A stretch of 64,000 bases of DNA, taken from positions 15,128,001 to 15,192,000 of the forward strand of contig JBHGNT010000009.1 of the NCBI GenBank assembly GCA_043228905.1. The letters are read 5' to 3'. Numbering within the stretch: the first letter of the stretch is position 1; each line of letters begins with the position of its first letter. The position numbers and the translations under genes are program-made. Positions 10,101-63,921 of this stretch are shown piece after piece. Under the pieces are notes generated by a model, which saw only the letters and a program-made list of their open reading frames with translations, was not told where the DNA came from and did no database searches. The DNA comes from Azolla caroliniana. Taxonomy: Eukaryota > Plantae > Polypodiophyta.

Positions 10101-10545
10101 TCCGCTCCTCGCTGCCCTCCAGCAAGGGTGCCGCGACTGGCCTTACCTTCTGGTCCACAGTCTTGTACTTTGTATCCACGTGGGTCGTCCGATCCGACCT
10201 GATCCTTTCCCCGAAGTTCGCGATGACTTCGTACATTCCCATCGAACTAACCGGAACGGTCCGGTCTTCTCTAAGGTCTTCACCGATCACCTTTCGCAAT
10301 GCGCCCAAGGTGTCGTCAAAAGAGACCGCCTCCACGGCGCCGCTGATCTCTTCGTCGGGGGAGAGGACTTCGCATCCCCTGAGCCGCTCCTCCGCTCGCT
10401 TCCTTTCCCGGCCGCTGACGCTGGCTATAGTACAACCTCCATTTTAAGAAAACCAAAACTTCCTACCTACTATACATGTGTGGGGTTCTTCCGGTATGTC
10501 CGGACTACCTCGGCCCCACGCCTTCATAGCCCTCTCTAAAAATCC
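7149..10545 (-). pseudogene. pol: pol (RT-RNase H-integrase) of element A, with stops and frameshifts
   Basis: RT: PYSNRWFTVPKKNG, DLYSGY, LPQG, PFLND. RNase H: AMADMLSR. Integrase: HESPWAGHRG...CESC zinc finger, WMVDLV core, TGFMPAELMYG. Confidence 0.93.
10480..10545 (-). promoter_or_regulatory. Putative -1 ribosomal frameshift signal (G GAU UUU plus pseudoknot)
   Basis: The gag-PR frame ends ...GGG GAT TTT TAG. The -1 frame continues FLERAMKAWGRGSP..., homologous to the equivalent region of element K. A stem GGGCTAT/GTAGTCC starts 6 nt downstream. Confidence 0.75.
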
Positions 10546-40272: not shown

Positions 40273-40770
40273 TGTTGAGAATCAAGCTCAACCTCGTCTA
40301 GTGTGTGAACTCACCTTGAGAGTGAATGGACACTCCAACGGTCAAGAGTCACCATTATGTCACCATTTGGTATTCTAGCATTTAGTATTAGTCATAGAAT
40401 CATATTCTATGACACATAACTTATGAGCTTTCACATTCCCCATGCTCCATGAGTCTTGTAGTTAATGAAGAGAGAGGGTGACTATATAAAGTGACGGGAA
40501 CTCAACGCTCCTTATGCGCTACGCTCGGCCACAACCGAGCTTAGAATGATACATAGAAAACAGAAACAAATGTACGCGACACAAAGGAGAGAAAAGGTAC
40601 ACAGAATGTTTATGTGGAAAACCCAAAGAGGGAAAAACCACGGCAGCCCACAGGCTGCATACTATCACTATTTGCCCTAAGTCATATTTATACTAGTATG
40701 ACTTTTCGGCTATTTACAAATATAGCCACGATGGGCTCTCAGAAACATATTTACGAATATGTCTCTTCCT

Positions 40771-41202
40771 CCGGTTCTCACCGGGTCTGCACCATCCGGC
40801 TCTCCGTAGCCGGGTGCTCCTCATCCGGTTCACACCGGGTCTGCACCATCCGGCTCTCCGTAGCCGGGTACTCCTCATCCGGTTCACACCGGGTCTGCAC
40901 CATCCGGCTCTCCGTAGCCGGGTACTCCTCATCCGGTTCACACCGGATCTGCACCATCCGGCTCTCCGTAGCCGGTTACTCCTCATCGGGTTCACACCGG
41001 GTCTACACCATCCGGCTCTCCATAGCCGGGTACTCCTCATCCGGTTCACACCGGGTCTGCACCATCCGGCTCTCCGTAGCCGGGTACTCCTCATCCGGTT
41101 CACACCGGGTCTGCACCATCCGGCTCTCCGTAGCCGGGTACTCCTCATCCGGTTCACACCGGGTCTACACCATCCGGCTCTCCGTAGCCGGGTACTTCTC
41201 TT
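40771..41202. repeat. 54-bp minisatellite x8 in the 3' LTR of J
   Basis: Unit CCGGTTCACACCGGGTCTGCACCATCCGGCTCTCCGTAGCCGGGTACTCCTCAT. Confidence 0.95.
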
Positions 41203-41304
41203 CCGGTTTCGTCCTCAGCCTATCGGCCTCGGCCGAGATTGTTCGTCGGCACTGTTCTTCTCCCTTCCCATCTGGAGGGACCTGTCTCCCAACAAACTCC
41301 CCCT

Positions 41305-44300
41305 TCACTCCGGCTTGGGGTGTCTTATCAGTCCGATCCACTTCCGGCATGCATCCAGCTTGTCGGGTATCAGAACTTTGGTCAGCATATCTGACCCATT
41401 CTCGGCCGTGTGGATCTTCGTCAGCGCGAACTCCTGGTCATCTACTCTTTCCCGGATCCAGTGATATCTTCGCTGGATATGCTTCGTCCGAGAATGGTAG
41501 GCCGCATTCTTAGCAAGGTGGATGGCACTTTGACTGTCGCAATAGAGTCGGTATTCCTCTTGCCGGATACCGAGCTCTCCGATGAAGTCCTTCATCCATA
41601 ATATTTCCTTGCCGGCTTCCACAGCCGCCATGTACTCCGCCTCTATGGTTGACAATGCAACCGTCTTCTGCAGCCTCGACTGCCACGAAATAGCTCCTCC
41701 TGCATAAGTCATTATATACCCGGATGTAGACCGGTTGGTACCCACATCAGCCGACATGTCTGAGTCGGTGAAACCGTCAAGTTGAGGTCTTCCGGAGCCG
41801 AATCGGAGACACATATTTGAAGTGCCCTTCAAATACCGGAGTATCCATTTGACCGCGTTCCAGTGCTCCTTGCCGGGATTGCTCATAAACCGACTCACCA
41901 CTCCGACTGCGTATCCTATATCCGGTCGGGTACACACCATTGCGTACATCAAGCTCCCGACGGCAGAGGCATATGGGATCTTCATCATATCCGCCTTCTT
42001 TGCTTTCTTCTTCGGGCTTTGCTTGCCGGATAGCTTGCAGTTTGCCGGAAGTGTCGATCCGACCGGTTTCACATCTGACATGTTGAACCGGTGAAGCACC
42101 TTTGTCACGTACTTCTCCTGTGATAGCCATAATTGCTTCTTTGACCGGTTCCGGATGATGTGCATCCCTAGCATCTGTCTTGCCGGACCCAAGTCTTTCA
42201 TTGAGAAGGTCTGGTTGAGAGGCTTCTTCAGCATCTGTATTTTGACTTGGTCATGTCCGACGATCAACATGTCATCCACGTACAGAAGGAGTATCAAGAA
42301 GTCGCCTCCTTCGAACTTCTTCACAAACACGCAGTGATCGGCCTGCGTCTTGTGGTACCCTTGATCGGTCATGAAGGAGTCGAACTTCCGGTACCATTGT
42401 CGGGGAGCCTACTTCAGTCCGTACAGGCTCTTCTTCAACCGGCATACCAGGTGCTCCTTCCCTTTCAACACGAATCCTTCCGGTTGCTGCATGTAGATCT
42501 CCTCTTCGAGGTCGCCGTGAAGGAATGTCATCTTCACGTCCAGCTGCTCTACCTCGAGGTCCATGCTTCCTGCTATACTCAGCACCGTCCGGATGGAGGT
42601 CATCTTTACTACCGGGGCAAATATCTCGTCGAAGTCCACGCCCTTCTTCTGCTGGAACCCCTTCACCACGATCCTGGCTTTGTATCTCGGGGGGTTGCCG
42701 GCATCTCCCGGTTTCAACTTGTACACCCACTTGTTTCGGAGTGCCCGCTTTCCTTTCGGCAACTCCACCAATTCGTATGTATGGTTCTCATGCAGGGAAT
42801 CCATCTCATCCTGCATGGCACTTAACCATTTTCGGCTGTGGGTGTCTTCCTTCGCTTCTTCGAAGCTTTCCAGTTCCCCTTCATTGGTCAGCAGAACATG
42901 CTCTGCATCCGGAAATCTCAGGGGGGGCCTTCTCTCTCTTAGAGGATATCTCCGTCTCTGGGCTTCGGTGACCGGCTCACCACTCTGCTCTTCATCCGAA
43001 TCTGATTCAAGGTCTTGGCCGGTTCCCGTTTCTGCTTCCTCTACTTCTCCTTCAGCCTGTTCAGTATCCTCACCGTAACCGGCTGGTCCCTCGAGTGCTA
43101 ACCGGTCTCTTGCCGGTTGGGTCTGCTCATCGTAGAATCGATCCTTACCGGTCGACTCAGAGTTCATTATCTATTTCTCCGACTCCCAGTCGGCGAGCGT
43201 CTTGTCCTCCATGAAGATAATATCTCGACTCCAGAATACCTTCTTGTCGACCGGGTCCCACACTCGGTAGCCGAACTCATCGTCGCCGTAACCGAGGAAT
43301 ATGTGTGGCCGGGTCTTTGGGTCTAACTTTCCTCTCCGGTCCTTAGCTACATGCACGTACGCGAGACACTCGAACACCTTCAGATGCCGGTAGGATACTT
43401 CCTTACCGGTCCAAACTCTCTGTGGCGTGTCTCCGTCCAAGGGTACTGAGGGTGATCTGTTTATCACGTATGTCGCCGTCGACAATGCCTCATCCTAAAA
43501 CTTCTTGGGTAGTTTTGCATGCGCTAGCATACTCCAGACCCTCTCCATTATGGTCCGGTTCATCCTCTCGGCCAGTCCGTTTAGTTCCGGCGTCTTCGGC
43601 ACGGTAAATTCGAGCCGGATTCCCTTCGAGCGGCAGTACTCCTCGAACTGCCCCCGGTATTCTCCTCCGTTATCTGCTCGAACCGCCTTCAGCTTCCGAC
43701 CGCTTTCTCTTTCCACTCTCGCGTGGAGCTCTTTGAAGACGGATAACACCTGATCCTTCATCTTCAACGGTGTGGCCCACAGATTCCGGCTGTGGTCATC
43801 TATGAACGTCACGAAGTACTGCGCTCCGGCATGTGACTTCGTGTCTACCTGACACACATCCGTATGCACCAACTCCAGTGGTGCATTACGTCTCATCGGT
43901 GGCCTTGGTCGGAAGGAGGTCCGGTTTTGCTTACTGGCCAGACAATCAACGCACTTCTCCAAGTACACGTTCTTCACTGGAATGAGGTTGTCGTCTGCAA
44001 GCCTCTTCATCCCCTTCTCGCTCATATGACACAGTCTCTTGTGCCACTGCTCACCGGCAGTGTCGGAAGCCACGTTCACTTCTTCAGGGCATAATGGGGC
44101 ATTCATCAGGTACAGTGTGTTTACCTTCCGGGCCCGAGCCACAATCAAGCTCCCTTTGCTAAACTTCATGACACCGTTCCGGATGCTACCCGTGTAGCCC
44201 TCATCATCTAGCCGACCGGCTGATATCAGGTTCAGTCGAACCTCCGGAACGTGTCGGACTTCCCTCAACAGCAACTTGCATCCGGTTGGTGTCGACAGCC

Positions 44301-45351
44301 ACATGTCTCCTATGCCGACAATTCGGCATGTACCTTCATTCCCCATCCGGACACAGCCGTGATCACCGGCTGAGTATGATGAGAAGCATTTCCGGTCCGG
44401 GGTGACATGGAACGACGCTCCGGAGTCTACCACCCAGGTCATCTCGTCGCCGGCAAGGTTTATCTCACTCTCCTCGGTGATGAGCATCAACTCTTCTTCA
44501 CTTGCCGCGATTTCCGTTGTCCCCTTCCGGTCCGGCCCCCTCCGGTCTTTACCGTTCCGGTCTGGGGTCTGCTTCGAATCGGTACCATCGGTCTCCTTAT
44601 CTTTTCGGAAATGCTGACAGTTCTTTTGGAAGTGTCCCGGCTTGCCGCAATAGAAGCAAGTGGGCCTCCCCCTTGACTTTGACCGTGTCCCCGACTTCTC
44701 CCGGTTCTGGGGACTACAGTTTCTATGTCTTCCGCGTTCCGATTCGGTAAGGAGCGCTTTGGAGTCAGAGCTCGTATCTTTATCTTTCCGATGCACCTCC
44801 TCATCTAGCAGGCTCGACTTCACTCTTGCTAGGGATAACCGCTTTCCTTCCGGCCCGGCATTGCCCAAAGTGACAACCAATGTCTCCCAGCTGTCCGGGA
44901 GGGAACCGAGCAGAAGTAGCGCAAGTACCTCATCAGCGCGAGGTACTTCCAATGAAGTTGCCTGGTGGATCAGCCCCTAGAAGGCATTCATGTGCTCCGC
45001 CATGCTGGAGCCATCTTGGTACCGGAGTCTTACTAGCTTCCGGAATACCGACACCTGATTAACAGCATTTTTGTTTTGAAACATTATGTCGATCTTCTCC
45101 CAGAGCTCATGAGCCTTGCTCTCTTCATTGAAGTTGTTGTACAGGCTCATGTCGATGAAGCACCGTATGTACGCCGTTGTCTTCATGTGCATCACCTCCC
45201 ATATCGCGGCGTCGATTTTGTCCGGTCTCTTGTCCCCGAACTGAACTGGCAGCCAGAGGTCTTTAACCACGAGCATGTCCCTCATCTTCGACTTCCATAC
45301 CGAATAGTTGGAGCCGGTGAGCTTGAACATGCCGCCAAACGATTCGTCCAT
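41305..45351 (-). pseudogene. Single-frame gag-pol of J with four premature TAG stops
   Basis: Five ORF-track pieces share one frame. Motifs: CFYCGKPGH, WVVDSGASFH, VRADNGGEY, QLDVK, YVDD, GGAISWQSRLQ, SDMLTK. Confidence 0.95.
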
Positions 45352-45838
45352 ATTTCTGTGTTGTTTCGCTCTGATACCACTTGACGGGAACTCAACGCTC
45401 CTTATGCGCTACGCTCGGCCACAACCGAGCTTAGAATGATACACAAAAAACGGGAACGAATGTACGCGACACAAAGGAGAGAAAAGGTACACAGAATGTT
45501 TACGTGGAAAACCCAAAGAGGGAAAAACCACGGCAGTCCACAGGCTGCAAACTATCACTATGTTGGAATGTACAAAACAGTGAGTTCACGGAGGCAACGA
45601 CCTCGTACTCATGATCTTCGCCACAGGCGGCGGTTACAACAGAGGCAGTGACCTCTTTCTTTCTCTCTCTCTCTGTACACTGTTACGTGTTCTCTCTTCT
45701 TCTTGCACCAACAAGAAAATGACAACTAACTACACATATTTGCCCTAAGTCATATTTATACTAATATGACTTTTCAGCTATTTACAAATATAGCCACGAT
45801 GGGCTCTCAGAAACATATTTACGAATATGTCTCTTCCT

Positions 45839-46162
45839 CCGGTTCTCACCGGGTCTGCGTCATCCGGCTCTCCGTAGCCGGGTGCTCCTCATCCGGTTCA
45901 CACCAGGTCTGCACCATCCGGCTCTCCGTAGCCGGGTACTCCTCATCCGGTTCACACCGGGTCTGCACCATCCGGCTCTCCGTAGCCGGGTACTCCTCAT
46001 TCGGTTCACACCGGGTCTCCACCATCCAGCTCTCCGTAGCCGGGTACTCCTCATCCAGTTCACACCGGGTCTGCACCATTCGGTTCTCCATAGCCGGGTA
46101 CTCCTCATCCGGTTCACACCGGGTCTGCACCATCCGGCTCTCCGTAGCCGGGTACTTCTCTT
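45839..46162. repeat. 54-bp minisatellite x6 in the 5' LTR of J
   Basis: Same unit as at 40771. Confidence 0.95.
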
Positions 46163-46560
46163 CTGGTTTCGTCCTCGGCCGAGATTGTTCGTCGGCACTG
46201 TTCTTCTCCCTTCCCATCCGGAGGGACCTGTCTCCCAACATAAAGCACCCTCCTCCCACCTTGTAAAAGAGTTGAGTCTTTCTCCTTTGTTAATATACTT
46301 TACCTTGCGTATTCTCTATGTCTTACTCCGTGTCTCTCTCACTCTCTCTCTCTCTCTCATACACACACACTCACAACACATATCTCTAGTCTATTCCGCT
46401 GCACAAGAATCGCCACCGATTCTTAACATGGTATCAGAGCGATTTGGTAGCTCGATCTAGCCCACTCACCTCATCGTGATCGTGTGTCGTGTCCTTCCCC
46501 GACAACCAAGAACCAGCTCATCGCTATCGTAGCTTCGCTACATAGCTTGCATTCGAAGAG

Positions 46561-46603
46561 AGAAGAAGAAGAAGAAGAAGAAGAAGAAGAAGAAGAAGAA
46601 GAA
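46561..46603. repeat. (GAA)n microsatellite in the 5' leader of G
   Basis: Direct reading. Confidence 0.95.
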
Positions 46604-46623
46604 TCGACATAATGAATACTCAA

Positions 46624-47391
46624 ATGGGGAGCGCTCTCCCTACTGAGAAGTTGGATCGAAACAACTTTGCATCTTGAGAGTACAAGATGCACCAATACCC
46701 TGTCGGACAAGGCTATTGGAGCTACATCAAAGGAGTGCACGAAGACCGACCCGTCGAAACAACTCTCGGATATGCGACATGGGATCAAGCCACAAGCCAC
46801 GTGATGTATTTCTTGGCGACATGTGTTCACGATCACATGCTCGGCTACATTCGCGAAGCCAAGAAGCCAAAGGAGGCATGGGAAAATCTATGGAAGATTT
46901 TCGCGGCGAACACAACCGCAAGAAGGCTTCAACTCCGCCAAGACTTTAACATTCAACAAAGGGACATGTCCATCACGACATACACCTTGAAGATCAAGGA
47001 GCTTTGCCACTCGCTCGGCTCGATAAGCGTAAACATCGATGATGATGAGATGGTGCAAATATGCCTCGATGGCCTCGCACCACGGTTTGGCGCGATGCGA
47101 ACCGCCGTTCTAGCACGGAAGAAATCTCCCTCCTTCTTCAAGCTCCAACCAATGCTATTAGTCGAAGAAAACCACGTGCGTACAAGGAGCAATGAGTTGG
47201 AAGGCCACATGCTCTACACGTACACAAACGGAGGAAGAGGACGCGGACGAGTGAGATGTTGATTCAGCCAAGCACAAAGCGGACGAGGTCCGACCTACGA
47301 CAACAACTCCCAATTTCGGCCCCAAAACGAAAGCCAACGAGGAACCTTTGCAAGAAGGGGGAGCTTCCACTCCAGCCCGGGCCGTCAAAAC
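46624..47391 (+). pseudogene. gag: gag of copia G (truncated)
   Basis: MGSALPTEKLDRNNFAS*EYKMHQY...KIKELCHSLGSI...LLVEENH. Confidence 0.88.
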
Positions 47392-47984
47392 GCTTGAAGA
47401 CAAAATTGAAGAAAAAATTGGCGACCCCCCTTCTTTTTTTCCTATAAAAGGAGGTTGAGGGGGGGAGGGGCTCATTTGAGGAGGACGTATTGAGAGGAGG
47501 AGACTATCGCCACTTTTCCTTCGGATCTCTTAATCTTCTTCTTCACCACTTCTCTTCATCTCATACCCCTTCATCCCCTCATCACCACGTGCTCGTCTTC
47601 TTCACGTTGGCACTGAAAGTGATCGTTTACGATGCTCGTGAGCCCAAGCTTCGTTGGTTCAACATTGCTTCACCCCGTTCGTCTTTGCGAGCCCGTGTGC
47701 TCACCGTTCTGGCGGTTGTGGTTCATTGTGGTTGGCCTTTTTGTGGTGCTTGTGTGTTCGTCTTTGTCGTGTTCGTGCTCCGTGTTTGGATTTGCTCTTG
47801 TCTCTAAGGGCATTTAGTATTTATGTTTTGTTGAGCTTGTGGTTAACTAGAAGTTGCCACATTCTAATCGAGCCCTATTTTATAAAGGGCCCTCTTGCGT
47901 TGGAATTGAACATATATTTATATCTTTAGCCAATATCAATCGTGTTTTTTTTTTTTTCTTTCTTTCTTTGTTCTCATCCCCTTG

Positions 47985-50372
47985 TACATTCAGCCATCTT
48001 GCTTGTGTGTGTTTGTGTCTTCCTTGTACATTCGGTCGTCTTGTGACGAGGGAGCGTTTCAGGTGTGCCCATGCACCTCTCCTCCTCATAAAGACGTACA
48101 AGCATTTGTATGTGTGCTTGTGTCTTCCTTGTACGTTCGGTCGTCTTGTGATGAGGAGCGTTTCGGGCGTGCCCATGCACCTCTCCTCCTCATAATGACG
48201 TACGAGCATTTTGTGTGTGTGTTTGTGTCTTCCTTGTACGTTCGGCCATCTTGTGACGAGGAAGCGTTTCAGGCATGCCCATGCACCGCTCCTCCTCATA
48301 AAGACGTACGAGCATTTATGCGCATGTTTGTGTCTTCCTTGTACGTTCGGCCATCTTGTGACGAGGGAGCGTTTTGGGCGTGCCCATGCACCTCTCCTCA
48401 TAAAGAAGTACGAGCGTTTGTGCATGTGTTTGTGTCTTCCTTGTACATTTGACAGTCTTGTGACGAGGGAGCATTTCAAGAGTGCCCATGCACCTCTCCT
48501 CCTCATAAAGGTGTACGAGCATTTTGTGCATGTTTTTGTGTCTTCCTTGTACGTTCAGCCGTCTTGTGACGAGGGACCGTTACGGACGTGCCCATGCACC
48601 TCTCCTCCTCATAAAGATGTACGAGCATTTGTTCGTGTGTTTTTGTCTTCCTTGTACTTTCAACCGTCTTATGACGAGGGAGCGTTTTGGGCGTGCCCAT
48701 CCACCTCTCCTCATAAAGAAGTACGAGCGTTTGTGTGTGTATTTGTGTCTTCCTTGTACATTTGACCGTCTAGTGACGAGGGAGCATTTCGGGCATGCCC
48801 ATGCACCTCTGAAGGTGTACGAGCATTTTGTGCATGTGTTTGTGTCTTCCTTGTATGTTCGGCCGTCTTGTGACAAGGGAGCGTTACGGGCGTGCCCATG
48901 CACCTCTCCTCCTCATAAAGGCAGACGAGCATTTGTGCGTGTGTTTGTGTCTTCCTTGTACGTTCAACTGTCCTATGACGAGGAAGCGTTTCGAGCCTGC
49001 CCATGCACCTCTCCTCCTCATAAAGGCACATGAGCATTTTGTGTGTGTGTATGTGTTTTCCTTGTACGTTTGGCCGTCTTGTGACGAAGGAGTGTTTCGG
49101 GCGTGACCATGCACCTCTCCTCCTCATAAAGGTGTACGGCATTCTTGCATGTGTTTGTGCCTTCCTTGTATGTTCGGTCGTCTTGTGACGAGGGAGCATT
49201 TTGGACGTGCCCATGCACCTCTCCTCCTCATAAAGGCGTATGAGCATTTTGTGTGTGTGTTTGTGTCTTCCTTGTACGTTCGGCCGCCTTGTGAAGAGGG
49301 AGCGTTTCGGGCATACCCATGCACCTCTCCTCCTCATAAAGGCTTACGAGCATCTGTGCGTGTGTTTGTGTCTTCCTTGTACGTTCAGTCGTCTTGTGAC
49401 GAGGGAACGTTTCAGGCATGCCCATGCACCTCTCCTCCTCATAAAGGCGTACGAGCATTTGTGTGTGTGTTTCTGTCTTCCTTGTACGTTCGACCGTCTT
49501 ATGACGAGGGAGCGTTTTGGGCGTACCCATGCACCTTTCCTCATAAAGACGTACGAGCATTTGTGCCTGTGTTTGTGTCTTCCTTGTACATTTGACCGTC
49601 TTGTGACAAGGGACCGTTTCAGGCATGCCCATGCAGCTATCAAGGCGTACAAGCATTTTGTGCATGTGTTTGTGTTTTCCTTATACGTTAGGCCGTCTTG
49701 TGACGAGGGAGCGTTTCGGGCATGCCCATGCACCTCTCCTCCTCATAAAGACGTACGAGCATTTGTGTGTGTTTGTGTCTTCCTTGTACATTCGACCGTC
49801 TTGTGACGAGGGAGCATTTTAGGCATGCCCATGCACCTCTGCTCCTCATAAGGCATATGAGCATTTTGTGCGCGTGTTTGTGTTTTCCTTGTACGTTCAG
49901 CCGTCTTGTGACGAGGGAGTGTTTTGGGCATGCCCCTGCACATCTCCTCCTCATAAAGACGTACGAGCATTTGTGCGTGTGTTTGTGTCTTCCTTGTACG
50001 TTCGACCGTCTTGTGACGAGGGAGTGTTTCGGTCATGCCCATGCACCTCTCCTCCTGAAAAAGACGTAGGAGCATTTTGTGCGTGTGTTTGTGTCTTCCT
50101 TGTACGTTCGGTCATCTTGTGACGAGGGAGCGTTTTGGGCGTGCTCCTCCTCATAAAGAAGTACGAGCATTTGTGTGTGTGTTTGTGTATTCCTTGTACG
50201 TTCGGTTGTCTTGTGACGAGATGTCATTCAAGCTCGCCCATGCACCTCTCCTTCTCATAAAGGCATACGAGCATTTGTGCGTGTGTTTTCGGTCTTTCTT
50301 GTACGTTCAACATCTTTTGACAAGGGAGCATTCGGGCGTGTCCACTCACCTCTCCTCCTCATAAAGACATAC
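47985..50372. repeat. ~105-bp tandem satellite, about 22-23 units, inside the 5' LTR of K
   Basis: Unit GTGTTTGTGTCTTCCTTGTACGTTCGGCCGTCTTGTGACGAGGGAGCGTTTCGGGCGTGCCCATGCACCTCTCCTCCTCATAAAGACGTACGAGCATTTGTGCGT; the ORF track shows a 35-aa periodicity. Confidence 0.95.
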
Positions 50373-50708
50373 GGGCATTCGTGTCTCTGTTATCGTCCCC
50401 TTGTGTGTTCATCTTGCGTACTCATCTTTGCTTGTACCCGTTTGATCACTTTGCTCATGCGGTGATCTCGAAAACTCGACTAGTCGTGATCAACAAAAGC
50501 CACTGGCCTCACAAAAGGCGCAACGAGCCCTTGCTCGGGAAGGGATCAGGAAGTAGTATTGTCGTAAAGCAAACCTCAGGTCTTCTCTATCACTGCAGTA
50601 CTCCCTAGTCCAAGACCCTTGTGGTCCCGCCCAAGTAACACACACGCGCGAAACATCGCGACATAAATTGGTGAACCCGACATCAAAGGACGGCAAGGGA
50701 GATCCAAG

Positions 50709-52852
50709 ATGCGAGGAGGAGAACTCGCTGAAGCGATGGCGGCAGCGGTGGACTGCTTGGTAAATGCTCAAGAAGGCATCACCGGCCTAGACCGGGCCAT
50801 AGAGACATGGTCAGCACAACGGTTTAATGGAAGAGATACCACAAGCTACTTGGATGCCTATAAGGCCGAAATGCTTATGCGAAACGTCCCCGAAGATATG
50901 CGGCTAGCCGGATTCACTAGAGTGGTAACACCGAGTATCCACACAGAGGTACTCGAGATACAAGTAGACCCTTGCAATTGGGAGGGGTTCAAAGAAAAAC
51001 TCCTTGAGAAGTACGGCCTTGATGACTCACTCAGAATTTTGAAAAGGGATCTAATGGAGTGGGTTGAGCTTCCCAGCAAGGCGAGAAATACTATGGCACT
51101 TCTACAAGAATTTGAGAAGCGCTTCGTGCGACTCTCGGCTCTTGATAGGACGGTGCTTTACACAAGCAAGGTCCTACTATTCATAAAATTTGTTGATGCA
51201 CAAGACCGAGAGAAGGTGGGGCTCCCCCTCGAAACTGATGATGGGCTCACGACGGATTGGGCTATGGTAAAACGGGTTTGTAGTCGCTTCGATAAGAGAA
51301 GGGAATGGAACCATGGGTCTCCTTTGAGCGGCAAACATCCACATGCTCCATTAGTCAAACACACGAACCCAGGGGTGGTAGAGCACCTCAAGAAAGAGAG
51401 CAAACAAATGCAAGGTTCGTCCTCGAGAGAAACGTGGTTGAAGCACCGTCTGGAGGGTTGGCAATAGACGAGCTCACAAAGATGGTGTGAGATCTCCAAA
51501 TAGCGCAAGTTAGGAGAGAGAGTGGTGGCCCTCAAGATCGATGTCCCCCATTCGCGCAAAGATGTATGTGGTGCGACAATCCCGACCACCTATGAAGGGA
51601 GTGTGGAGACTTTCAAGAGGCCCTAAGAAGGGATATTGTCTATCTTTGGAACAATAGGGTCTATTCGACGGAGACAAGGCGCCCCTTGGAATTGAATCAA
51701 GGCCGAGGGGGCATGAGAAGGCTAATGGAGGAGGCCGAATCACGACATATTGAAGTCGTCCACTACTCGGCGTCGGTTGGGATCCGAGTGGGAAAAGAGG
51801 TGAGGAGGCAAGAGGAGAAAGAGTTTGACTTTTGGCCATCAATACTTGGAAGCCTCTCTAGGGGAAAGTTCAAAAGAGAAGAAGCGGACAAAGCGGAAAG
51901 AAGGGTCCAAGAAGAAACCGGGTGGAAGGATCCGGTGGAAGAAAAGACTGGCTTAGTGGAAGCCGCTTGCCAAAACTACGAAGTAATGGTAGAAGAGAAG
52001 AAGGTAGGAAATGATGTGGAAGCCGGTCCATCAAGGAAATACGACGCTTGAGGTGCACTAAGAAGGGAAGAGCCGAACCAGTCTCAAGCACGTGACGAAA
52101 GATGGAAAGAGAAGGGGAACCCCCCCAACTTCAAGATTTGCTCGAAGATCGAACAAGCAACGGACTTGAAGAAGGTAGTGGAGGAAAGGATCCTCAATAG
52201 TCACGTAGAGTTTACTCTACGAGAGGTCCTCGGAATTGCCAAGAAAGAATTACATCAGGTCATCATCGACCTAATGAAGAGGAAGCGGCTCTCGACGGAG
52301 CAAGAAGTGGAAAATCCCACGATTGTAAATGCATTGTGAACTGAGGTGCCCAAGGAAGACAAAGACTATGTGGATAGTCACTACACGAGGCCGCATTGGG
52401 CGAGAGTGACAACGGAGACACCGGTGCGGGTCGGAGATGTAAATGAGCCGGTTGTAGCCTTGATCGACCATGGCTCTAAGGTTAACCTTATGTCCATGGA
52501 CTTTTATAAAAAGGGAAACTAGCCGATCAACACGAAGCACGGGTGGAAGATTAGAGCGGCGACCCGAGCAACCGAGGAGCTATACAGGGCTTGCTCGAAT
52601 GTACGGGTGAAGGTGGGGGACGTAGAAATAGATCAACATTTTTGTGTTCAAGAGACGTCCTCACACCCGGTCATCTTGGGTGAACCATACATCATGGTGG
52701 CTCACATGGAGATGAAGGTGCTAGACAACGGGTCGGCATATGCGACAGTCAAGAGCCAAGATGGGAAGCATTCGGTCCAATTCCTTACGGTGAGGCCCAA
52801 CCATGAGCGCAATCGAGCCTCCCTCAAAGGGGAGAGCCGAGAGGATTTTTGA
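50709..52852 (+). pseudogene. gag: gag-protease of K (frameshifted)
   Basis: MRGGELAEAMAAAVD...; CMWCD knuckle; LIDHGS protease motif; ends QFLTVRPNHERN...EDF*. Colinear with element A. Confidence 0.9.
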
Positions 52853-52905
52853 TGCAAGCTATTAAAGAGTGGGGCCGCAATAGCCCGAGGCAAACTAAGA
52901 CCCTA
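52843..52905 (+). promoter_or_regulatory. Putative -1 frameshift signal of K
   Basis: G GAT TTT TGA, with pol open in the -1 frame from 52849 and a stem GCTATT (52858-52863)/AATAGC (52879-52884). Confidence 0.75.
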
Positions 52906-54096
52906 AACCCTTGCAAAACTATTAAATGTAATAGGAAACAATTTTGGTTCTCCGAAAATGGAGCTTGTAAAATTACTAGTTTAAGTGATAGAGATAAGCC
53001 TAGGGCCAAGAGATACAAAAGGTATCTCAAACAATGTAATTTATTGGGGGAAGATGACACCATAAGCGGCGCCATGGAGGCAGTCTCGTTCGACGACACT
53101 CTCAGAGAGATGGAGAGGATAGTCGTTTCGGGCATCAATGAAGACAAGGTAATTCTAGTCAACTCAGTTGACATGTACACCGTCATCGAAGAGCTTGGGC
53201 GGTTGATTGAGGAAGCGAGGATGGTCAAGGTGCAAACAAAGTACAAAACCGTGGACAGGAAGGTGAAGCATGTGGCTTCCCCATTGCCTAACAATAATTG
53301 GGATCGGATAAAGGGGGTAGCGGTTGATCCTAGCTTGCGGGACCCACGAGGCATAGGGCACTGAATCACCAACGAGACGCGACAAAAGCTCCGGAATGGT
53401 GGGGGTGGCTTCCTATTGCCTAGGGAGGAGGAAATATTTAGAAGGATGATAGAAAGACACAAAAGGGCTTTCGCCTTCTCGTCGGGTGAGATAGGGTGCG
53501 TAAACCCTAAGATCATGGAGCCAACGGTGATCTTTACGGTACCGCTTGTACCATGGAACATCAAAGCAATCCCGGTTTCGAGAGCTCACATCCCGAAGTT
53601 GATTGAGCTACTCAAGGAAAAGATCAAGATGGGTATCCTCGAGCCATCAAACGCCCCATACTCGAATCGGTGGTTCATTATGCCAAAGAAGAACGGCACC
53701 TTACCCTTCATCCAGGACCTACAACCTGTTAATTAAGTGACAATTCGAAATGTAGGGGTCGGGCCGAGCGTTGACAAATTCACCGAGGCCTTCGCTGGAA
53801 GGTCTATTTATTCGATCGGTGATCTATACTCGGGGTATGATCAATTCTAACTAGTTGTGGAATGTAGGGACATCACGACGATGCGGACCCCTATCAGCCT
53901 AGTAGGAATGTGTACCTTGCCACAAGAAGGCACTAACTCTATAGAACACATGGTAAATGCAATGAACAAGGTATTGAGAGATTGCATCCCCGACATCACC
54001 ATGCCATTCCTCGATGACATCCCCATAAAAGGGTGCTCTGAAGCAGAGAAAGATGAAACCTTGGACGAGGATGACTGTAGACGTTTTGTGGCATAT
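52849..54096 (+). pseudogene. pol: pol of K (N-terminal RT only)
   Basis: PYSNRWF, DLYSGYD, LPQ and PFLDD motifs, then the sequence jumps into the 3' LTR. Confidence 0.9.
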
Positions 54097-54630
54097 CTCA
54101 TACCCCTTCATGCCCTCATCACCACATGCTCATCTTCTTCGCGTTGGCACTCGAAGTTCTCATTTACGGTGCTCGTGAACCCGAGCTTCGTTGGTTCAAC
54201 GTTGCTTCGCCTCGTTCTTCATTACGAGCCCGTGTGCTCGCCGTTCAGGTGGTCGTGGTTCATTGGGGTTGGTATTTCTGTGGTGCTTGTGTGTTCGTCT
54301 TTGTCGTGTTCGTGCTCCGTGTTCGGATTTGCTCTTGTCTCTAAGGGCATTTAGTATTTATGTTTTGTTGAGCTTGTGGTTAACTAGAAGTTGCACATTG
54401 TAATCGAGCCCTATTTTATAAAGGGCCCTCTTGCATTGGAATTAAACACGTATTTATTTCTTTAGCCAATATCATTCGTGTTTTTCTTTCTTTCTTTCTT
54501 TCTTTGTTCTCGTCCACTTGTACGTTCGGCCGTCTTGTGACAAGGGAGTGTTTCAAGCGTGCCCATGCACCTCTCCTCCTCATAAAGGCGTACGAGCATT
54601 TGTGTGTGTGCTTGTGTCTTCCTTGTACGT

Positions 54631-55427
54631 TGTCGTAGTGTGAATCACACACTACGTGAAATATGTAAAATACTATATCCGATTTAAAGTACGTATTATA
54701 AATAAAATAAAACATTAAAAATATTTATTACGTGCATAAGGCAAGATTTGAACCCTATACCTCCACATAGACAAACCCCAACCTTACTATTGTACTAACT
54801 TATCCTAATATGTATAAGACCTTTATTTACTCCTATCTTTATTAAAAGGTAAGTCATGCATTTTTTTTAGAATGCGTGAATACTTTATTTATAAGAAAAA
54901 TGTACACCAATAAAAAATGACTTGTGCACATCTAACGAGCATGAGCACTATATTTAGGAAATAAAAGCATAGTGTAAAAAGGCAACTCATGCACATTTAG
55001 TGTGCATGAACACTTTAGAAAAAGCATGAAGCTATGCTTAGCCTCTTCCATCCTTATATAAAGAGGAGATAAAGATGTATGGGAGGTTGTTGCTTATTTT
55101 TACAAGGGTGGATTGATATAATATAATCGTGGGATTCACGAATTTGCTAACTATTTTTTTCTCTCTTAATCTGAGTACTCACTAATACACTATACTCGTG
55201 GGATTCACGAGTTTTTCATATCTTTCTTTCTTACAACATATTTCATATTCATCATTGCCTTAGAATTTCCTTTTCTCCTAGTCCAAAACCTCAATGGTTC
55301 TCGCCCGACTCACGCAACGATCCGGCGCCGAAAGGCACGACACAAGTGAATTTCCTTTTCTCCTAGTCCAAAACCTCAATGGTTCCTGCCCGACTCACGC
55401 AACAATCCAGCGCCGAAAGGCACAACA
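54631..55427 (+). mobile_element. AT-rich gypsy-type solo LTR
   Basis: TGTCGT...ACAACA ends and 4-bp TSD ACGT (54627-54630 and 55428-55431). The U5 motif CTAGTCCAAAACC...TGGT resembles elements A, B, C and K. The last ~85 bp is duplicated. Confidence 0.85.
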
Positions 55428-55600
55428 ACGTTTGGTCGTCTTGTGACAAGGGAGCGTTTCAAGCGTGCCGATGCACGTCTCCTCCTCATAAAGGCGTACG
55501 AGCATTTTGTGCATGTGTTTGTGTCTTCCTTGTACTTTCGGCCGTCTTGTGACGAGGACGCGTTTCGGGCGTGCCCATGCACCTCTCCTTCTCATAAAGA

Positions 55601-56107
55601 TGTACCCAGTTCGCGGAGAGGCCCCCACCGCCCAAACACAACCTAGACACTAACCCGTCCGTCCCTTTAAAATATAAATATAAATATCGTTATCCCTCCA
55701 AACACCTCATACTACTTTCAATTATAATAATTATAACTAATCAAAACAAGTCATTCATATCAATCAATAAATACACTAATCATCGGTCGTATTGTTGTGT
55801 AGACAAGGGCTAGGGAGTGTAAGAATTGGTGCACTGTCATACGGTGATACTAATCTTCGTCCTATCAGGTTATAATCGATGGCGTCCACTGCATTCACCA
55901 AGCTCCTCCACGCGCACTACCCCGACGTCGGTTGTGGCTCCTTGGTAATTCAAGCCGAGTTCAACAACACTCGTTGTACCTACCGGGCCTCAAGTTCTTC
56001 CTCAAGATTGTCCTTTGGGGTGTACTTCCTGAGTTGGTCAGCCGGTTCCTCACAAGATACAACCCCGATACCAGCCACATTCGCATGCACGCCTTCGCAA
56101 ACGCTAC
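55601..56107. other. Unidentified ~500-bp insert in the satellite
   Basis: Interrupts a satellite unit, with no TSD and no match elsewhere in the window. Confidence 0.55.
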
Positions 56108-56585
56108 GGGTGTGTTTGGGTCTTCCTAGTACGTTCGACCGTCTAGTGATGAGGGAGCGTTTCGGGCGTGCCCATGCACCTCTACTCCTCATAAAGGCGT
56201 ACGAGCATTTTGTGCATGTGTTTGTGTCTTCCTTATATGTTCGCCCGTCTTGTGACGAGGGAGTGTTTCGGGTGTGCCCATGTACCTCTCGTCCTCATAA
56301 AGACGTACGAGCATTTTGTTCATGTGTTTGTGTCTTCCTTGTACATTCCATCGTCGTGTGACGAGGGAGCATTTTAGGCGTGACCTTGAACCTCTCCTCC
56401 TCATAAAGGTGTACGAGCATTTTGCGCATGTGTTTGTGTCTTCCTTGTACATTCAGTTGTCTTGTGACGAGGGAGCGTTTCGGGTGTGCCCATGCACCTC
56501 TCCTCCTCATAAAGACGTACTAGCATTTGTGCATGTGTTTGTGTCTTCCTTGTATGTTCGACCGTCTTGTGACGAGGGAGCATTT

Positions 56586-57302
56586 TGACGGAACTCAAGG
56601 CTCCTTATGTTCAACGCTCGGCCACAACCGAGATTCTTTTCATACACAGAAAACGAGAAATAAAACGCGACACAAAGGAGAGGGAGATACACAGGAGGTT
56701 TACGTGGAAAACCCAAAGAGGGAAAAACCACGACAGCCCACAGGCTGCAAACTGTCACTATGTGAGAATGTACAATAGTGAGTTCACTGAGGCAACGACC
56801 TCGTGCTCACAGATCTTTGCCACAAGCGGCGGTTACAACAGAGGCAACGACCTCTTTCTCTCTCTCTCTCTTTGAAAACTATTACGTGCTCTCTCTTCTT
56901 CTTGCACCAACAAGGGAAAAAAATGACAACAACAGTTACTAAAAGTTTGCCCTAAGTCATATTTATACTAATATGACTTTTCGGCTATTTACAAATGTAG
57001 CCTCAATGGGCTCTCAGAAAACATATTTACGAATATGTCTCTTCATCCGGTTCTCACCGGGTCTGTACCATCCGGCTCTCCGTAGCCGGGTATTCCTCAT
57101 CCGGTCTTCACCGGGTCTGTATCATCCGGCTCTCCGTAGCCGGGTACTCCTCATCCGGTTCATACCGGGCCTGCACCATCCGGCTCTCCGTAGCCGGGTA
57201 CTCCTCATCCAGTTCATACCGGGCCTGCACCATCCGGCTCTCCGTAGCCGGGTCCTCCTCATACGGTTTCCCTTCCCATCCGGAGGGACCTGTCTCCCAA
57301 CA
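56586..57302 (-). mobile_element. Solo LTR of the copia J family with a 54-bp repeat x4 (57047-57262)
   Basis: TGACGG...CCCAACA ends and perfect TSD CATTT (56581-56585 and 57303-57307). Confidence 0.95.
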
Positions 57303-57953
57303 CATTTTGGGCATGCCCATGCACCTCTTCTCCTCATAAAGACGTATGAGCATTTTTTGCATGTGTTTGTGTCTTCCTTGTGCGTTCGGCCATCTTGTGA
57401 CGAGGGAGTGTTTCGGGCGTGCCCATGGACCTCTCCTCCTCATAAAGACATACGAGCATTTGTGCGTGTGTTTGTGTATTCCTTGTACGTTCAGTCGTCT
57501 TGTGACAAGACGTCGTTCGGGCAATGCCCATGCACCTCTCCTCCTCATAAAGGTGTACGAGCATTTGTGCCTGTGTTTTGTGTTTTCCTTGTACGTTCGA
57601 TGTCTTGTGACAAGGGAGAGTTCGGGCGTGCCCATGCACCTCTATTCCTCATAAAGACGTATGGGCATTCGTGTTTGTGTTATCATCCCCTTGTGCGTTC
57701 ATCTTGCTTTCTCATCTTTGCTTGTACCCATTTGATCACTTGGCTCGTGTGGTGATCTCGAAAACTCGACTAGTCATGATCAACGAAAGCCACCGGCCTC
57801 ACAAAAAGGGCAACGAGCCCTTGCTCGGAAAGGGGTCGGGAAGTAGTATTGTCATAAAGCAAACCTCGGGTCTTCTCTATCCCTTGAGTACTCCCTAGTC
57901 CAAGACCCCCGCGGTCCCACCCAAGTAACACGCGCGCGCGAAACTTCGTGAGA

Positions 57954-60872
57954 GCGCTCCTCGACCTCCTCGGTCGACTTGTCTGCTCAATAGGCCCATC
58001 TCAGCTCCTTCATTGTTGTGACTCCGACGCTTGTCAACATGTTGTCTCCTCCATATCAGCGTTGACTTTCGCTACCTCGTTGTCTGTTCGGCCTTTAGTT
58101 GATTCAGCGTCTCCGAATCGAACTCCTCTTTTAAATCGGGTGTCTCCTATTTGTTCCAGCTCTTGTCTGAATTAGATGTCTCTAATCTGTCCTCTTCCAG
58201 ACCTTTGACCACATCTGCCCCATATTTTGGTTTGTGCCTTTCCCGCATTGCCTCCCCTTTTTTCAGTTGGCTTCGGCTTGGGCTCTCCGTTCCGGTGGCT
58301 GCATCCGTTCTCAGCTTTCTTAGCCATACCATGCAATCTGACTTCTTCAGGTAGGCCGAAGTCGAAATTGGTTTCCAACCCTCAGCTTCCCTGTCATCTT
58401 CCTCATCCCTCCTTTCATTCCTCCCCCTCAAGTTCGGCATATCAAGGTATTACACACCTAGTGCACCGGAAAATTGCTGCAACTTGTCTAAGCCTAGGGG
58501 TTTCATGAAGACATCGGTCACCTGCCGATCTGTCAGAACATACACTTGTTCCACTTCACCGGAGAGAACATGCTCTCGGACAAAATGATAGTGCACCTCG
58601 ATGTGCTTAGTCCGGGCGTGAAAGACGGGGATCTTAGCCAATTGGATGTTGTTGAGGTTATCGCAATAGATCACTGTCGGATCGGATACCTCCACCTGCA
58701 GATCCTTTGGGCCCTCTTGAGCCATATGGCTTCCTCAATGTGCTTAGTCCAGGCATGAAAGACGGGGTTCTGGCCAATTGGATGTTGTCGAGGTTATCGC
58801 AATAGATCACCATCGGATCAGATACCTCCACCTGCAGATCCTTTAGGAGCCTCTTTAGCCATATGGCTTCACATGTCGCGACATACGCTCCTCGATACTC
58901 AACCTCAATCCTCAATAGTGTAACTGTCAGTTGCTTCTTACTACTTTTGGCGACCGCAGCGCTTCCTAGTGAAAACGCATATCCGGATGTAGACCTACTG
59001 TCGCCGGCATTTCCGGCCCAATCGGCATTTGTGTAGCCAACAAGTTGTTCGGCTACACCGGTACGATATGGCAACCCCCTGTCCTTAGTGCCCTAACATA
59101 TCGCAGGATTCGGTGCACGCACTGAAGGTGCTCCATGGTCAAATGCCCATAAATGGAATGATCAACCTGACCGGATAACTAAGGTTCGGTCGGGTGATGG
59201 TCAGATAGATAAGGCCGTCGACTATCTGTCTGAACCTTTTCGGGTCGCATGATGTTCCAAAGTCAGGGCGGAGCTTCACATTCCCGTCGAGAGGGATCGA
59301 AACGGATTTGCATTCCTTCATACTGAATTTGAAGAGCATACTCAGCACATAATGTTGTTGACTGATCAGTATGCCCTCCGGGGTGCGGATGATTTCGATC
59401 TCGAGGAAGTAATGAAGGTCCCCAAAATCCTTCATGTCGAACGATGTCATAGGTTGGGACTTGATGCGGCGGATTTCGTCCCGGTCAACGCCAACGATGA
59501 CTAAATCATTAACATAAAGTAAAATACTAACTAGCCCGTTCTGACCTTGCCAGATGAAGAGAGAAGAGTCTGATTTTGACGGAGCAAACCCCATCCGACG
59601 CAATCTCTGCGTGATCTTCGCATTCCAGGCACGCGGAGCTTGCTTGAGTCTATAGAGGGACTTCTTCAATCGGCACACTACAGATGTATTCATGTCGTAC
59701 TGAAATCCGGGGGGCTAAACCATATACAGTTGTTCCTGAAGATCGCCTTGCTGGAACACGTTCTTTACATCCATCTGATGCAGATGCCCCCCCTTCGCCA
59801 CGGCCACCGCAAGCAGGACACGAATGGTAGTCATCTTTGTGACCGGCATGATTGGCGCAAACATCTCATCATAGTCGATATCATGCTGTTGTGCGTAGCC
59901 CTTTGCCACTAACCAGGCCTTGTACCTGTTGACGGAGCCGTCGGTGTTATATTTAACTTTGTAGCCCGGCAACCGATCAGCTTCACTCCGTTCAGTACGT
60001 CCACTAAATCCCACATCTCATTTTCCATAAGTGGGTGCATCTCTTCCTCCATAACGGCACACCAATTTGCGTCCTTCGTTGCATCTGGGTAGCTCTCTAG
60101 TGCACAGCTGCCACCTTCACCATGTACGCATAATGATGCACCATATACTCATTGTAGCCGTACCTTTTTATGGGGTTCTTCTAGCGGGTGGATCGTCCCA
60201 GTTTCTGCGCTGTCGATTTCTTGGCCTTCTTGGTTGACTCGGATTTCTCTTCCGAAGGTCCATCTTCGATCTGTCCAGAGTCGGATCTGCTCCGATCCGA
60301 CTCGTGTCTGCCGGTGTCCTATTCCGACATCTTCTTCTTCCACTTTTATTTGTGTGTGAACCATCTCCTTGGTTCCTTGCGTGGGTAGAGCACGGCCGAG
60401 TCGTCACTACTCGCCGGCTCTTCACCTAACTAGTCATCCCAACTCAGTCACTCATTCGGCCCACTTAGTCGGGATGAGATCAGACTCTGATCTTCTACCC
60501 ATATCGTTTTGGGCTAACAGGCCTCATCCTCCGGAATCGGGTTGGAGTCGAACATCAGAGCCAGTAGAGAGTACCATGGTGCCGACTCATCTGAATTCGA
60601 CATCTCGACTCACTCGAACTTGTTTTGTTTCGGGGGTTATAGCACTTATAACCCTTTTTCTCATGTGAGTAGCCGATAAGGATGCACTTCTCCGACTTCA
60701 GGTCCAGCTTTCGCCGCTTCTCATCCGGCACATGCACATATCCAATGCTACCGAATATCTTTAGGTGACTTAAATTTGGCTTCTGCCCAAACTACAGCTC
60801 ATGGGCTAACACCTTATCCCTGATCTAGTTTTAGGTGTAGATGGCCGTCCTAACCGCTTCGGCCCAATAGAA
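57954..60872 (-). mobile_element. Copia internal region (INT C-terminus, RT, RNase H, 3' extension), probably the body of H
   Basis: HQMDVKN, YVND and HARTKHIEVHYHF motifs, with a ~137-bp duplication in RNase H (about 58598-58870). Confidence 0.88.
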
Positions 60873-63800
60873 CGCAAAAGAGAGCAGAACACAAAAGCTA
60901 TATTCAAAAACGATATAATTACTCTGCACATACAACTATGCTCAGTAGCATTATTTATACAAGTCCTCGTGGGACTGACAAAAGTACCGCATACTTCAAT
61001 GCTCACACGAGCATCTGACACTTACTACGAGACTGTAATTGCCTATTAGTCTACACTAATACTAGGCTCCCGGTTACTGATTGGATCCGGCTAATAGGCT
61101 CCCCAGCTCACCGGCTCTATTGCTTGCCGGCTCGGTTTCTCATAGCTTACCGATCCGTCTCGCTTGCCGGCTCCAGTTGAGCTTGCCTCTCAACACTCCC
61201 CCTCAAGCTCAACTTGAGGTTGGATCCTAGTGTGAGTCTCTGTGGCAGTTGGTTCTTCCAACCGACTTCTCCTGGCGTTGCTCCGCCTTGCTCGCGCTCC
61301 CCGTCCGGTCCGGTTCTGTTTGCCGCGACCCCTCTTGTTCTACACGCCTCGATCTTCTCGGTCGATATGTCTGCTCAATAGGCCCCTCTCAGCTCCTTCA
61401 CTGTTATGACTCCGGCGCTTGCCGATCCGTCAGTTCCTCCGCGATGGCATCGACTTCCGCTACATCCGTGTCTGCTTGGCCTTGAATTGATCTGGTTCAT
61501 CCAAATCTATATGTTGAACCGAATCGATTGTCTCCGATTCGTTCCAGCTCTTGTCTGAATCGGTTGCTCCCGATTCGTCTTTTGGTTCCAAGCCCTTCAC
61601 CACATCGGACCATGTCCGGGTCTTGGCCTTCTTCCTTCGGTCAGCTCTGTCCTTCTTGACTCTGCCGCCTTCTGTTCTTCCCTCACCGGCGCAATCGGCA
61701 TTCTCTTTGTCTTTGCCCGTTCCGGTGTCTTTGCCCGTTCTCCCCCTCAAGTGTGGCACGTCGAGATGTTGAACACCAAGAATTTCGGTGAAGTGCTACA
61801 ACTTGTCCGAGCCGAGTGGTTTGGTGAAGATGTCGGCAACTTCCCGATCCATGTGAACATACCGAAGTTCAACCTCACCGCTCAGGACACGCTCACGCAC
61901 GAAGTGATAGTGCACTTCTATGTGTTTTGTGCGAGCATGGAATACGGGGTTCTTGGCGAGTTGCATGTTGCTTATGTTGTCGCAGTAGACCAGAATCGGG
62001 GCCGGTACCTCGATCCGTAAGACTTGCAGCAGTTGCCGAAGCCAAATGCCTTCACAGGTGGCAATGGTAGCGCCCCGATACTCAGCCTCAGTGCTCGACA
62101 AAGCAACTGTTGGCTGCTTTTTGCTGCTCCACTCAACAGCCGCGTTACCTAGAGAAAACATGTAACCAGAGGTTGATCGGTGATCTAATGCATCGCCGAC
62201 CCAATCGGCATCCATGTAACCGACGAGCTCTTCGGTTATACCTCGCCGGTATAACAGTCCCCGGTCCTTGGTGCCGCTGACATACCGCAATATCCGTTGC
62301 GCGCACTGAAGGTGCTCCACGGTCGGCTTCTGCATGAACTGACTTATCATTCTGACCGGATAGCTGATGTCGGGTCGCGTGATAGTCAAGTAAATAAGGC
62401 TTCCGACAATTTGTCGGAACCGTTGCTCGTTGCAGGCCGGTCCAGAGTTGGGACGAAGCTTCTGGTTCCGGTCCAAGGGTGTGGATACAGGTCGGCATTC
62501 TGTCATGCCAAACTTGTACAGCATATTCAAGACGTAATGTCGTTGTGAGAGCAATATGCCGTCCGGGGTTCGGATCACCTCGATCCTTAGAAAATAATGA
62601 AGGTCCACCAGATCCTTCATCTCAAATGCGTCCGACAACTGGGACTTGACGCAGTTGATTTCTGGAACACCCGGTTCGGTGATGACTAGATCATCAACAT
62701 ACAGTTGTACACATACCGGACCGGTTGGGCCTTGCCGGATGAACAATGAGGAGTCCGATTTGGAGGTCACAAACCCCATCTTACACAACCGGTGCATGAT
62801 CTTCGCATTCCAAGTTCGAGGGGCTTGCTTCAGGCCGTACAACGACTTCTTCAGCCGGCATACCGCCGATTTGTTCATCTCCGATTGAAAACCGAGAGGC
62901 TGAGTCATAAAGACTTCTTCTTCAAGATCACCTTGAAGAAATGCATACTTCAGATCCATCTGATGAAGATGCCACCCCCTTGCCGCAGCAACCGCCAGCA
63001 CCACTCGAACCGTCGTCATCTTCACTACATGAGCGAAGGTCTCGTCGTAGTCGATTCCGTGGGTCTGCGCATATCCCTTCGCCACTAACCGGGCCTTGTA
63101 CCAGTTAACTGAACCGTCGTCGTTGTACTTTACTTTGTATATCCACTTGCATCCGATCGGTTTACAGTGACGAGGAGGGTCAACCAGGTCCCATGTCTTA
63201 TTCACATCAAGTGCCCGCATTTCTTCCTCCATAGCGGCACACCAATTTGCGTTCTTGGCCGCTTCTGCATAGCTCTCCGGCTCACGCACTTCTGCCAACT
63301 TAGTCATGTACGCATAGTGATGCGCCATGTACTCATTGTACCCGTACCGCTTGATGGGATCCTTCTGGCGGGTGGACCAGCGTAACTCACCGTTACCCGG
63401 TTTGAGGCCCTTCTTGGCCGGTTCGGTCCTCGTTGCCGAAGATCCGCCTTTCTCCTTGCCAGAGTCGGGCATACACCGATCCGACTCATCGTTGCCAGAT
63501 TCGAATTCCTGCATCTTCTTCTTCCCCTTCTCTTTGCGCGTGAACCGTCTCCTCGGTTCCTTGCGCGGGGAATGCACGACAAAGTCTCCACTACTCACCG
63601 GTTCCTCATCGGACTAGTCAGATTGACTCAGTCTCTCATTCAGCCCACTCAACCGGAACGATTCCGGACTCTCATCCTGAGTCCACGCTTCATCATCCTC
63701 TACCTGGGCCGGTTCGGGATCACTAGCCTCATCCAACGGCATCGGGTCAGATTCGGAAGTCGGAGTCAGTAAGGAGTACCAGAATGCCGATTCATCAAAC

Positions 63801-63921
63801 TCGACATCTCAACGGATTTGGACGTGCTTTATCCAGGGGTTATAACACTTATAACCCTTTTGCTCTTGAGCATAGCCGACTAAGATGCATTTTTCCGATT
63901 TTGCATCCAGCTTCCTCCTCG
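60873..63921 (-). mobile_element. Copia I (D family): partial 3' LTR ~60873-61195, PPT, RT-RNase H
   Basis: 600-aa ORF 61796-63598 with YMAHHYAYM, HQMD, YVDD and ADIFTKPL; PPT at 61196-61206. Confidence 0.92.

Follow-up and report, generated by a model that had tools for sequence, protein, structure and literature searches.

The window, that is, the whole stretch of 64,000 nucleotides that was analysed, harbors on its plus strand element K, a dead gypsy LTR retrotransposon from a Phygy-like family of high abundance (thousands of copies). K begins with a 5′ LTR remnant (47405–50663) that lacks the first ~350 nt with respect to its sibling L126 and contains an expanded tandem repeat of ~105 bp (~20 copies compared to ~4 in the LTR of L126). 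The primer binding site (PBS, 50669–50685) carries the family motif; a conserved TGGTGAACCCGACGTGA is located directly after the 5′ LTR in the relatives, and this motif may be of the tRNA-Trp type. ORF1 (50667–52852) encodes gag and protease and is decayed, with stops at 51465, 51593, 52049, 52337 and 52520 and one frame change; in intact relatives it is a single ORF of 700–750 aa with DUF4100. A retropepsin-type protease domain occupies the end of ORF1 (52415–52819), with the catalytic DHGS at 52466, and is broken by the stop at 52520. This protease escaped Pfam scans of the whole ORF and a PDB search with a single sequence; it was revealed by alignment of the domain (Pfam Asp_protease_2 matched 20 of 21 relatives, with scores under the curated cut-off) and by its fold (model pLDDT 81.8, best structural matches Ddi1 and retroviral proteases).

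The ORF2 remnant (52807–54100), in the −1 frame, comprises a linker and RT and is interrupted by stops at 53362, 53734 and 53848. The remaining pol was removed by a deletion of ~2.95 kb with microhomology that fused RT to the interior of the 3′ LTR (remnant at 54095–54643), and K keeps only the protease and part of RT, its own ends being lost. ORF2 of intact relatives encodes RT, RNase H and integrase. Since the retropepsin lies just before the slippery heptamer described below and these three domains follow in ORF2 of the relatives, the junction in the K family separates gag-protease from RT-RNase H-integrase (RT-RH-IN), a protease/RT break rather than a gag/pol break. K itself is unable to use the signal because of the upstream stops in ORF1 and the deletion of most of pol, and is a fossil witness only. 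Elsewhere in the window, decayed copia elements (RVT_2 matches) are nested with gypsy elements at 23357–27400, 41305–47250 and 58400–63900, 54-bp tandem repeats are found at 40600–41300, 45700–46200 and 56900–57300, and repeat/LTR stretches extend over 47900–50400 and 54517–57700, with more LTR fragments downstream of K.

Intact relatives show the Ty3/gypsy order PR-RT-RH-IN between their LTRs. The K family would fit the Phygy clade by target duplication, PBS motif and layout. As far as the cited passages of the clade description go (Neumann et al., 2019, PMC6317226), the features in common with Phygy, a group of non-chromovirus Ty3/gypsy elements, are target duplications of 4 bp with the NCGN motif, a putatively similar PBS motif, a short and fully coding internal region, RT-RH-IN order and the lack of chromodomain matches in young relatives; many homologues of the family come from Physcomitrium patens. 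Target duplications in the K relatives are ACGG (L121), ACGT (L122), CCGG (L111), GCGT (L239), ACGG (L240) and ACGC (L243); no chromodomain was matched in three intact ORF2 proteins and there is no extra ORF, the two ORFs occupying the internal region. The nearest named homologues of the family are P. patens proteins, and judging from its homologues the host would probably be a bryophyte. The relatives measure 7.1 (L122), 7.3 (L121), 7.9 (L111) and ~8.6 kb (L126) compared to 7.7–10.0 kb for Phygy; the same source, in the part cited, treats element size as a weak classification criterion. Its entry for the ORF organisation of Phygy reads "not determined", whereas the K family has a GAG-PROT / RT-RH-INT organisation with a −1 overlap.

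The junction cassette in K and in element A

The gag-protease ORF of K ends, in frame, with the slippery heptamer G_GAT_TTT (GGATTTT, 52843–52849), directly followed by the stop TGA (52850–52852). Downstream on the plus strand, two predicted stems are interlaced: stem 1 joins 52855–52863 to 52879–52887, and the 5′ strand of stem 2 (TGGGG, 52870–52874), inside the stem-1 loop, would form five pairs, one of them G-U, with CCCTA (52901–52905; CCCCA in most subfamilies). A previous sequence-only reading of this locus had listed GGATTTT, TGA, GCTATT (52858–52863, 8 nt past the heptamer), TGGGG, AATAGC (52879–52884) and CCCTA, all of which are present, and had described pol as open in −1, which is borne out by a −1 frame running open from 52807 to the stop at 53362 (more stops at 53734 and 53848). 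The window has six occurrences of GGATTTT, counting both strands, among them the homologous junctions of K (52843, plus strand) and of a second element, A (10545, minus strand). The homologous cassette of A (10481–10545, minus strand) consists of GGATTTT, TAG and the stems GGGCTATG/GGTAGTCC and TGGGG/CCCCA.

The LTRs of A and K are largely unrelated, as had been proposed (their match is confined to ~56 nt at the LTR end, with 77% identity), and the internal regions are 67–68% identical. The further proposal that K carries an independent copy of the cassette does not hold, given that A and K represent homologous subfamilies within a single lineage (tree; 75% identity in protease DNA); the cassette was therefore inherited from their common ancestor. 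Its pairing was also said to be kept with different bases, which is correct for the compensatory differences between A and K (G-U versus G-C, T-G versus T-A), while another part of the differences is private decay of K. Likewise, the 6-bp stem placed 8 nt downstream is the decayed form of stem 1. K carries AA at 52856–52857, where 22 of its 29 close siblings carry GG, none of them AA, and GG is also found in three other runs; the siblings thus have a stem 1 of 8–9 bp with a spacer of 5–6 nt. No pairs in stem 1 are better conserved than these two columns (30 and 31 of 32 alignment rows), and the AA of K would fit methyl-C decay on the opposite strand. Taken alone, the K junction folds no better than shuffles (z = 0.57, 0.41, 0.29), and its stem 2 is at chance level (1457 of 2000 shuffles equal its score).

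Stem 1 of A (window 10502–10532, minus strand) has a private mismatch at the innermost pair, and A has stops in both ORFs. A hairpin is predicted just 5′ of the heptamer (window 52817–52837) in A-, K- and L121-type subfamilies (z ~ −1.4 to −3) and is missing in deeper branches, with a mean z of −1.0 overall; it could be an attenuator, and no signal is claimed for it.

Conservation of the site and covariation of the stems

A pattern composed of the protease end and GGATTTTT, which itself requires the heptamer, gave 3677 matches in the genome compared to 0 for the reversed control. A heptamer-free pattern gave 2576 matches; as counted by eye, GGATTTT was present in 88 of the first 100 listed, the remaining 12 comprising 8 single-base variants, 1 deletion and 3 divergent subfamilies. 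GGATTTT is kept in 27 of K's 29 close siblings, local indels occur in 3, each at a different position, and the codon after the heptamer is TGA in 22 and TTA in 7 (most other subfamilies have TAG, TAA or TGA). The offset to the downstream KYK motif at 30 K-type loci was −1 in 17, different in 10 and unmeasurable in 3. Most of the 10 deviating loci have no indel near the junction, and their offsets would fit scattered decay farther downstream. The young copies L121 and L122 (LTRs 99.6–99.9% identical) combine NCGN target duplications with a pair of intact ORFs at the −1 offset. The junction was included in 28 of 78 metagenome loci, and 26 of these 28 show the −1 offset; some are 99% identical to copies in this genome, so that they add subfamilies and not hosts. 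The viral contigs scanned contained no relatives of the family.

Among 20 representatives hand-picked for intactness, the −1 frame is stop-free over 130 codons in 18 (the other frames have 3–19 stops) and the first Met of ORF2 is located anywhere from codon 2 to codon 110. Between −1 subfamilies, dN/dS in ORF2 is 0.07–0.09, and the linker, free of stops in the ORF2 frame only, has values of 0.14–0.41 on few changes. At the protein level, the best 120 of 224 ORF1 matches were taken, of which 100 had ends 100–190 residues after the protease motif; 64 of these 100 end in DF (including proteins of P. patens and Riccia sorocarpa) and 3 in GF. A G-ending codon before DF is a prediction of G_GAT_TTT, and the residue at this position in 65 proteins is one of nine amino acids that all have such a codon (0 of 65 without), compared to a background of 28% lacking one in the ten upstream residues; the DF-ending proteins are interrelated and many belong to K's own family. 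In 24 listed homologues, including Adiantum, the stop is separated from DF or GF by five residues; homologues with such an ORF1 end (P0029–P0055, P0062 and others) indicate that the position of the stop relative to the slip site differs between lineages.

Two other variants were observed. L141 and L158 are short derivatives, probably non-autonomous elements, in which a polypurine tract and LTR follow within ~35 nt after the slip site and pol is absent. A subfamily comprising L113, L142, L257 and L258 carries G_GAT_TTC together with a second GGATTTC 12 nt upstream.

Covariation was assessed in an alignment (A2) of 32 rows, composed of K, A and 30 subfamily representatives hand-picked from 56 clusters of 186 distinct loci, the sequences being related; spacer lengths were also taken from A2. 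In stem 1, 89% of the cells are paired and five of the nine pairs changed on both sides, a score reached by 0 of 500 shuffles (24–46% in slid controls), and the stem starts 6 nt past the heptamer in 30 of the 32 rows. A tree-aware test, on a protein tree with L001, L031, L085 and L096 pruned, found 6 coincident changes in stem 1 compared to 1.24 ± 1.03 expected (0 of 500). The corresponding figure for stem 2 (16 compared to 9.5) leans to structure and is optimistic because the stem-2 register was fitted per sequence. Stem-2 variants fit their own partners (TGAGGG/CCCTCA, ACAGGG/CCCTGT, GCAGGGA/TCCTTGC); when partners were swapped, 0 of 18 swaps scored as well in 6 of the 12 variant subfamilies, whereas most did in 4 of the 12. 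The 3′ strand of stem 2 occurs in all three codon phases and so does not reflect a peptide constraint. No Rfam family was matched. The family carries a predicted H-type pseudoknot in which both stems covary and into which the RNA would fold.

Probable frameshifting after the protease and its alternatives

G_GAT_TTT is an in-frame heptamer of the X_XXY_YYZ type with one mismatch in XXX, and its RNA form G_GAU_UUU is termed a typical −1 motif in the part of PMC11050907 cited here. The predicted structure, with its fitted stem-2 register, lies within the canonical 5–9 nt downstream of the site, and the overlapping −1 ORF is under coding constraint. The ORF overlap at a known heptamer just after the protease, the covarying knot 6 nt on, the linker open in −1 only, the lack of a fixed start, the dN/dS of ORF2 and the conservation of this layout lead us to infer programmed −1 frameshifting: at G_GAU_UUU and the predicted pseudoknot, where the gag-protease and RT-RNase H-integrase frames overlap, a share of the ribosomes very probably slips back one base. 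The majority of ribosomes would halt at the codon after the heptamer and yield Gag-protease, and in those stalled by the knot the A-site tRNA-Phe would re-pair with UUU of the −1 frame, which would yield Gag-PR-RT-RH-IN. As a counterpoint, one subfamily departs from the −1 offset and has −2/+1.

Several other explanations of the offset were weighed. The idea that a decayed element, copied in trans, acquired the indel and the stop by chance would suit the decay of K (dN/dS ~0.6 against the intact relative L167 in both ORFs) and the 10 of 30 K-type loci with another KYK offset, but it hardly deserves credit when the same offset and site recur in young intact copies and most sampled subfamilies, the x-D-F end is found in named Physcomitrium and Riccia proteins and the stems covary. 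At the level of the family it is refuted by intact two-ORF copies under purifying selection, and the sequence-only reading was right to argue against it, heptamer, offset and stem position being kept family-wide with compensatory changes. Resolution of the offset by polymerase slippage in transcription, on the T4–T5 run at the junction, is just as improbable, for this is a short run, with a terminal C in one subfamily (GGATTTC), and ribosomal shifting is characterised by a knot at a fixed distance 3′ of the site (PMC3458567, in the section cited).

Removal of a spacer by splicing to reach ORF2, with the structure serving, for example, packaging, has a precedent in Ogre elements, which share the ORF break between protease and RT; there, as far as the cited part of PMC6317226 describes it, a non-coding spacer of ~274 bp is spliced out, whereas the K family has overlapping frames and a linker open, under the constraint given above, solely in the ORF2 frame. 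The −2/+1 subfamily does present a donor-like CAG|GT at its junction, but its copies L240, L185 and L245 have no common pyrimidine-rich AG acceptor of the right phase, and splicing, which we consider unlikely, would leave the fixed heptamer and spacer unexplained. Among the joints in contigs of other runs (probably DNA), none spans the slip site and none has GT..AG ends. It is similarly hard to believe that ORF2 begins at its own AUG, by stop-restart or internal initiation. An ATG overlaps the stop in K (TGATG) and L168, and a Met at codon 25 is common to the −2/+1 subfamily; against this, the first Met is scattered among the 20 representatives and TGATG is not kept (TGATT in L167, TAGAG in most subfamilies). 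Stop-restart at TGATG was rejected since that motif is not conserved.

Programmed −1 frameshifting by a heptamer and pseudoknot belongs to a known class of mechanism; its location and host group here, together with the −2/+1 variant, appear to be new. G_GAU_UUU is also the −1 frameshift site of plant, fungal and insect RNA viruses, whereas the K family has it at the protease/RT junction of an LTR retrotransposon, followed after 5–6 nt by a predicted H-type knot that is compact and local. Retroviral pro-pol (HTLV-1) resembles it by a pseudoknot-stimulated −1 shift after the protease, but in the passages cited HTLV-1 makes two shifts, whereas the K family has gag and protease in one ORF and a single shift to RT-RH-IN. 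For plant LTR elements with split gag/pol frames, the cited portion of a 2016 review, itself citing a 2003 survey, mentions only two types, both +1 (PMC5009743). A literature search, with most subscription journals outside its scope, found no report of such a signal in Phygy or other bryophyte elements and no junction detail in papers on Tca3 and Ylt1. A −1 signal conserved at the end of the protease would close the gap in the Phygy ORF layout and would imply similar levels of Gag and protease with scarce RT and integrase, and the thousands of natural variants are a ready covariation set for a frameshift knot active in plants.

The −2/+1 subfamily

One subfamily (L111, L185, L239–L254) reads CAG GTT TTT GAC TAG at the junction, that is, G_GTT_TTT, one base shorter at the site; a TGA closes the −1 frame immediately, and ORF2 is read in −2/+1. 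A different offset in other copies had been named in advance as evidence against the cassette; it does occur in this one distant subfamily, which nevertheless retains and strengthens the knot. By eye, 79 of the first 100 of 119 genome matches are of this type, and 5 of the 16 copies fetched have both ORFs intact and LTRs 99.9–100% identical. Its pol appears to have been used, given the purifying selection on ORF2 (dN/dS 0.116 between L240 and L185 over 1100 codons, dS 0.215). Contigs of two other runs cross the junction without gaps at ~96% identity and with the slip site unchanged, the listed differences in the knot being in or beside loops. ORF1 of P0027, known here as protein, is 78% identical to that of the subfamily and also ends QVF-x. 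The position of the branch in an unrooted tree, among −1 subfamilies, makes a derived origin probable. The knot predicted for the branch has 10 + 9 bp with gapless stems and a spacer of 5 nt compared to 6 nt in the −1 subfamilies.

We lean slightly towards −2 frameshifting in this branch, which would be a candidate natural case. The poor P-site re-pairing, the splice-donor-like CAG|GT and the common Met at codon 25 speak against it; a spacer 1–2 nt shorter is preferred by −2 shifting according to the cited section of PMC3458567, and the branch would permit a direct test of this preference on natural sequences. The −2/−1 site of arterivirus nsp2TF is similar, with G_GUU_UUU and an immediate UGA in the −1 frame (PMC4937337 and PMC6675879, in the parts cited); according to the same passages, the arterivirus site relies on no RNA structure but on a protein complex at a C-rich motif ~10 nt away, whereas the subfamily has the predicted 10 + 9 bp pseudoknot 5 nt away. 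The arterivirus motif CCCANCUCC, located 9–10 nt downstream and involved in nsp1β/PCBP transactivation, is absent in the subfamily, where knot strands take its place. The subfamily site would, by analogy, work like the arterivirus site without being a member of that system.

On a broader scale, we give even chances to a scenario in which a retrotransposon lineage of land plants (mosses, liverworts and probably ferns) uses pseudoknot-driven −1 frameshifting behind the protease to control RT, and in which one active branch moved to −2 by the loss of one base. This loss would have converted G_GAU_UUU into the arterivirus-like G_GUU_UUU and brought the spacer down from 6 nt to 5 nt, with a stronger knot alongside. 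If true, a mobile element would depend on a natural −2 frameshift driven by RNA structure, which would put the spacer-tension model to a living test. Single copies with a one-base-shorter junction were also observed in ordinary −1 subfamilies (G000:C4:710705, C11:2615598, C12:13518512 and C12:14656787), which suggests that the one-base-shortening mutation recurs.
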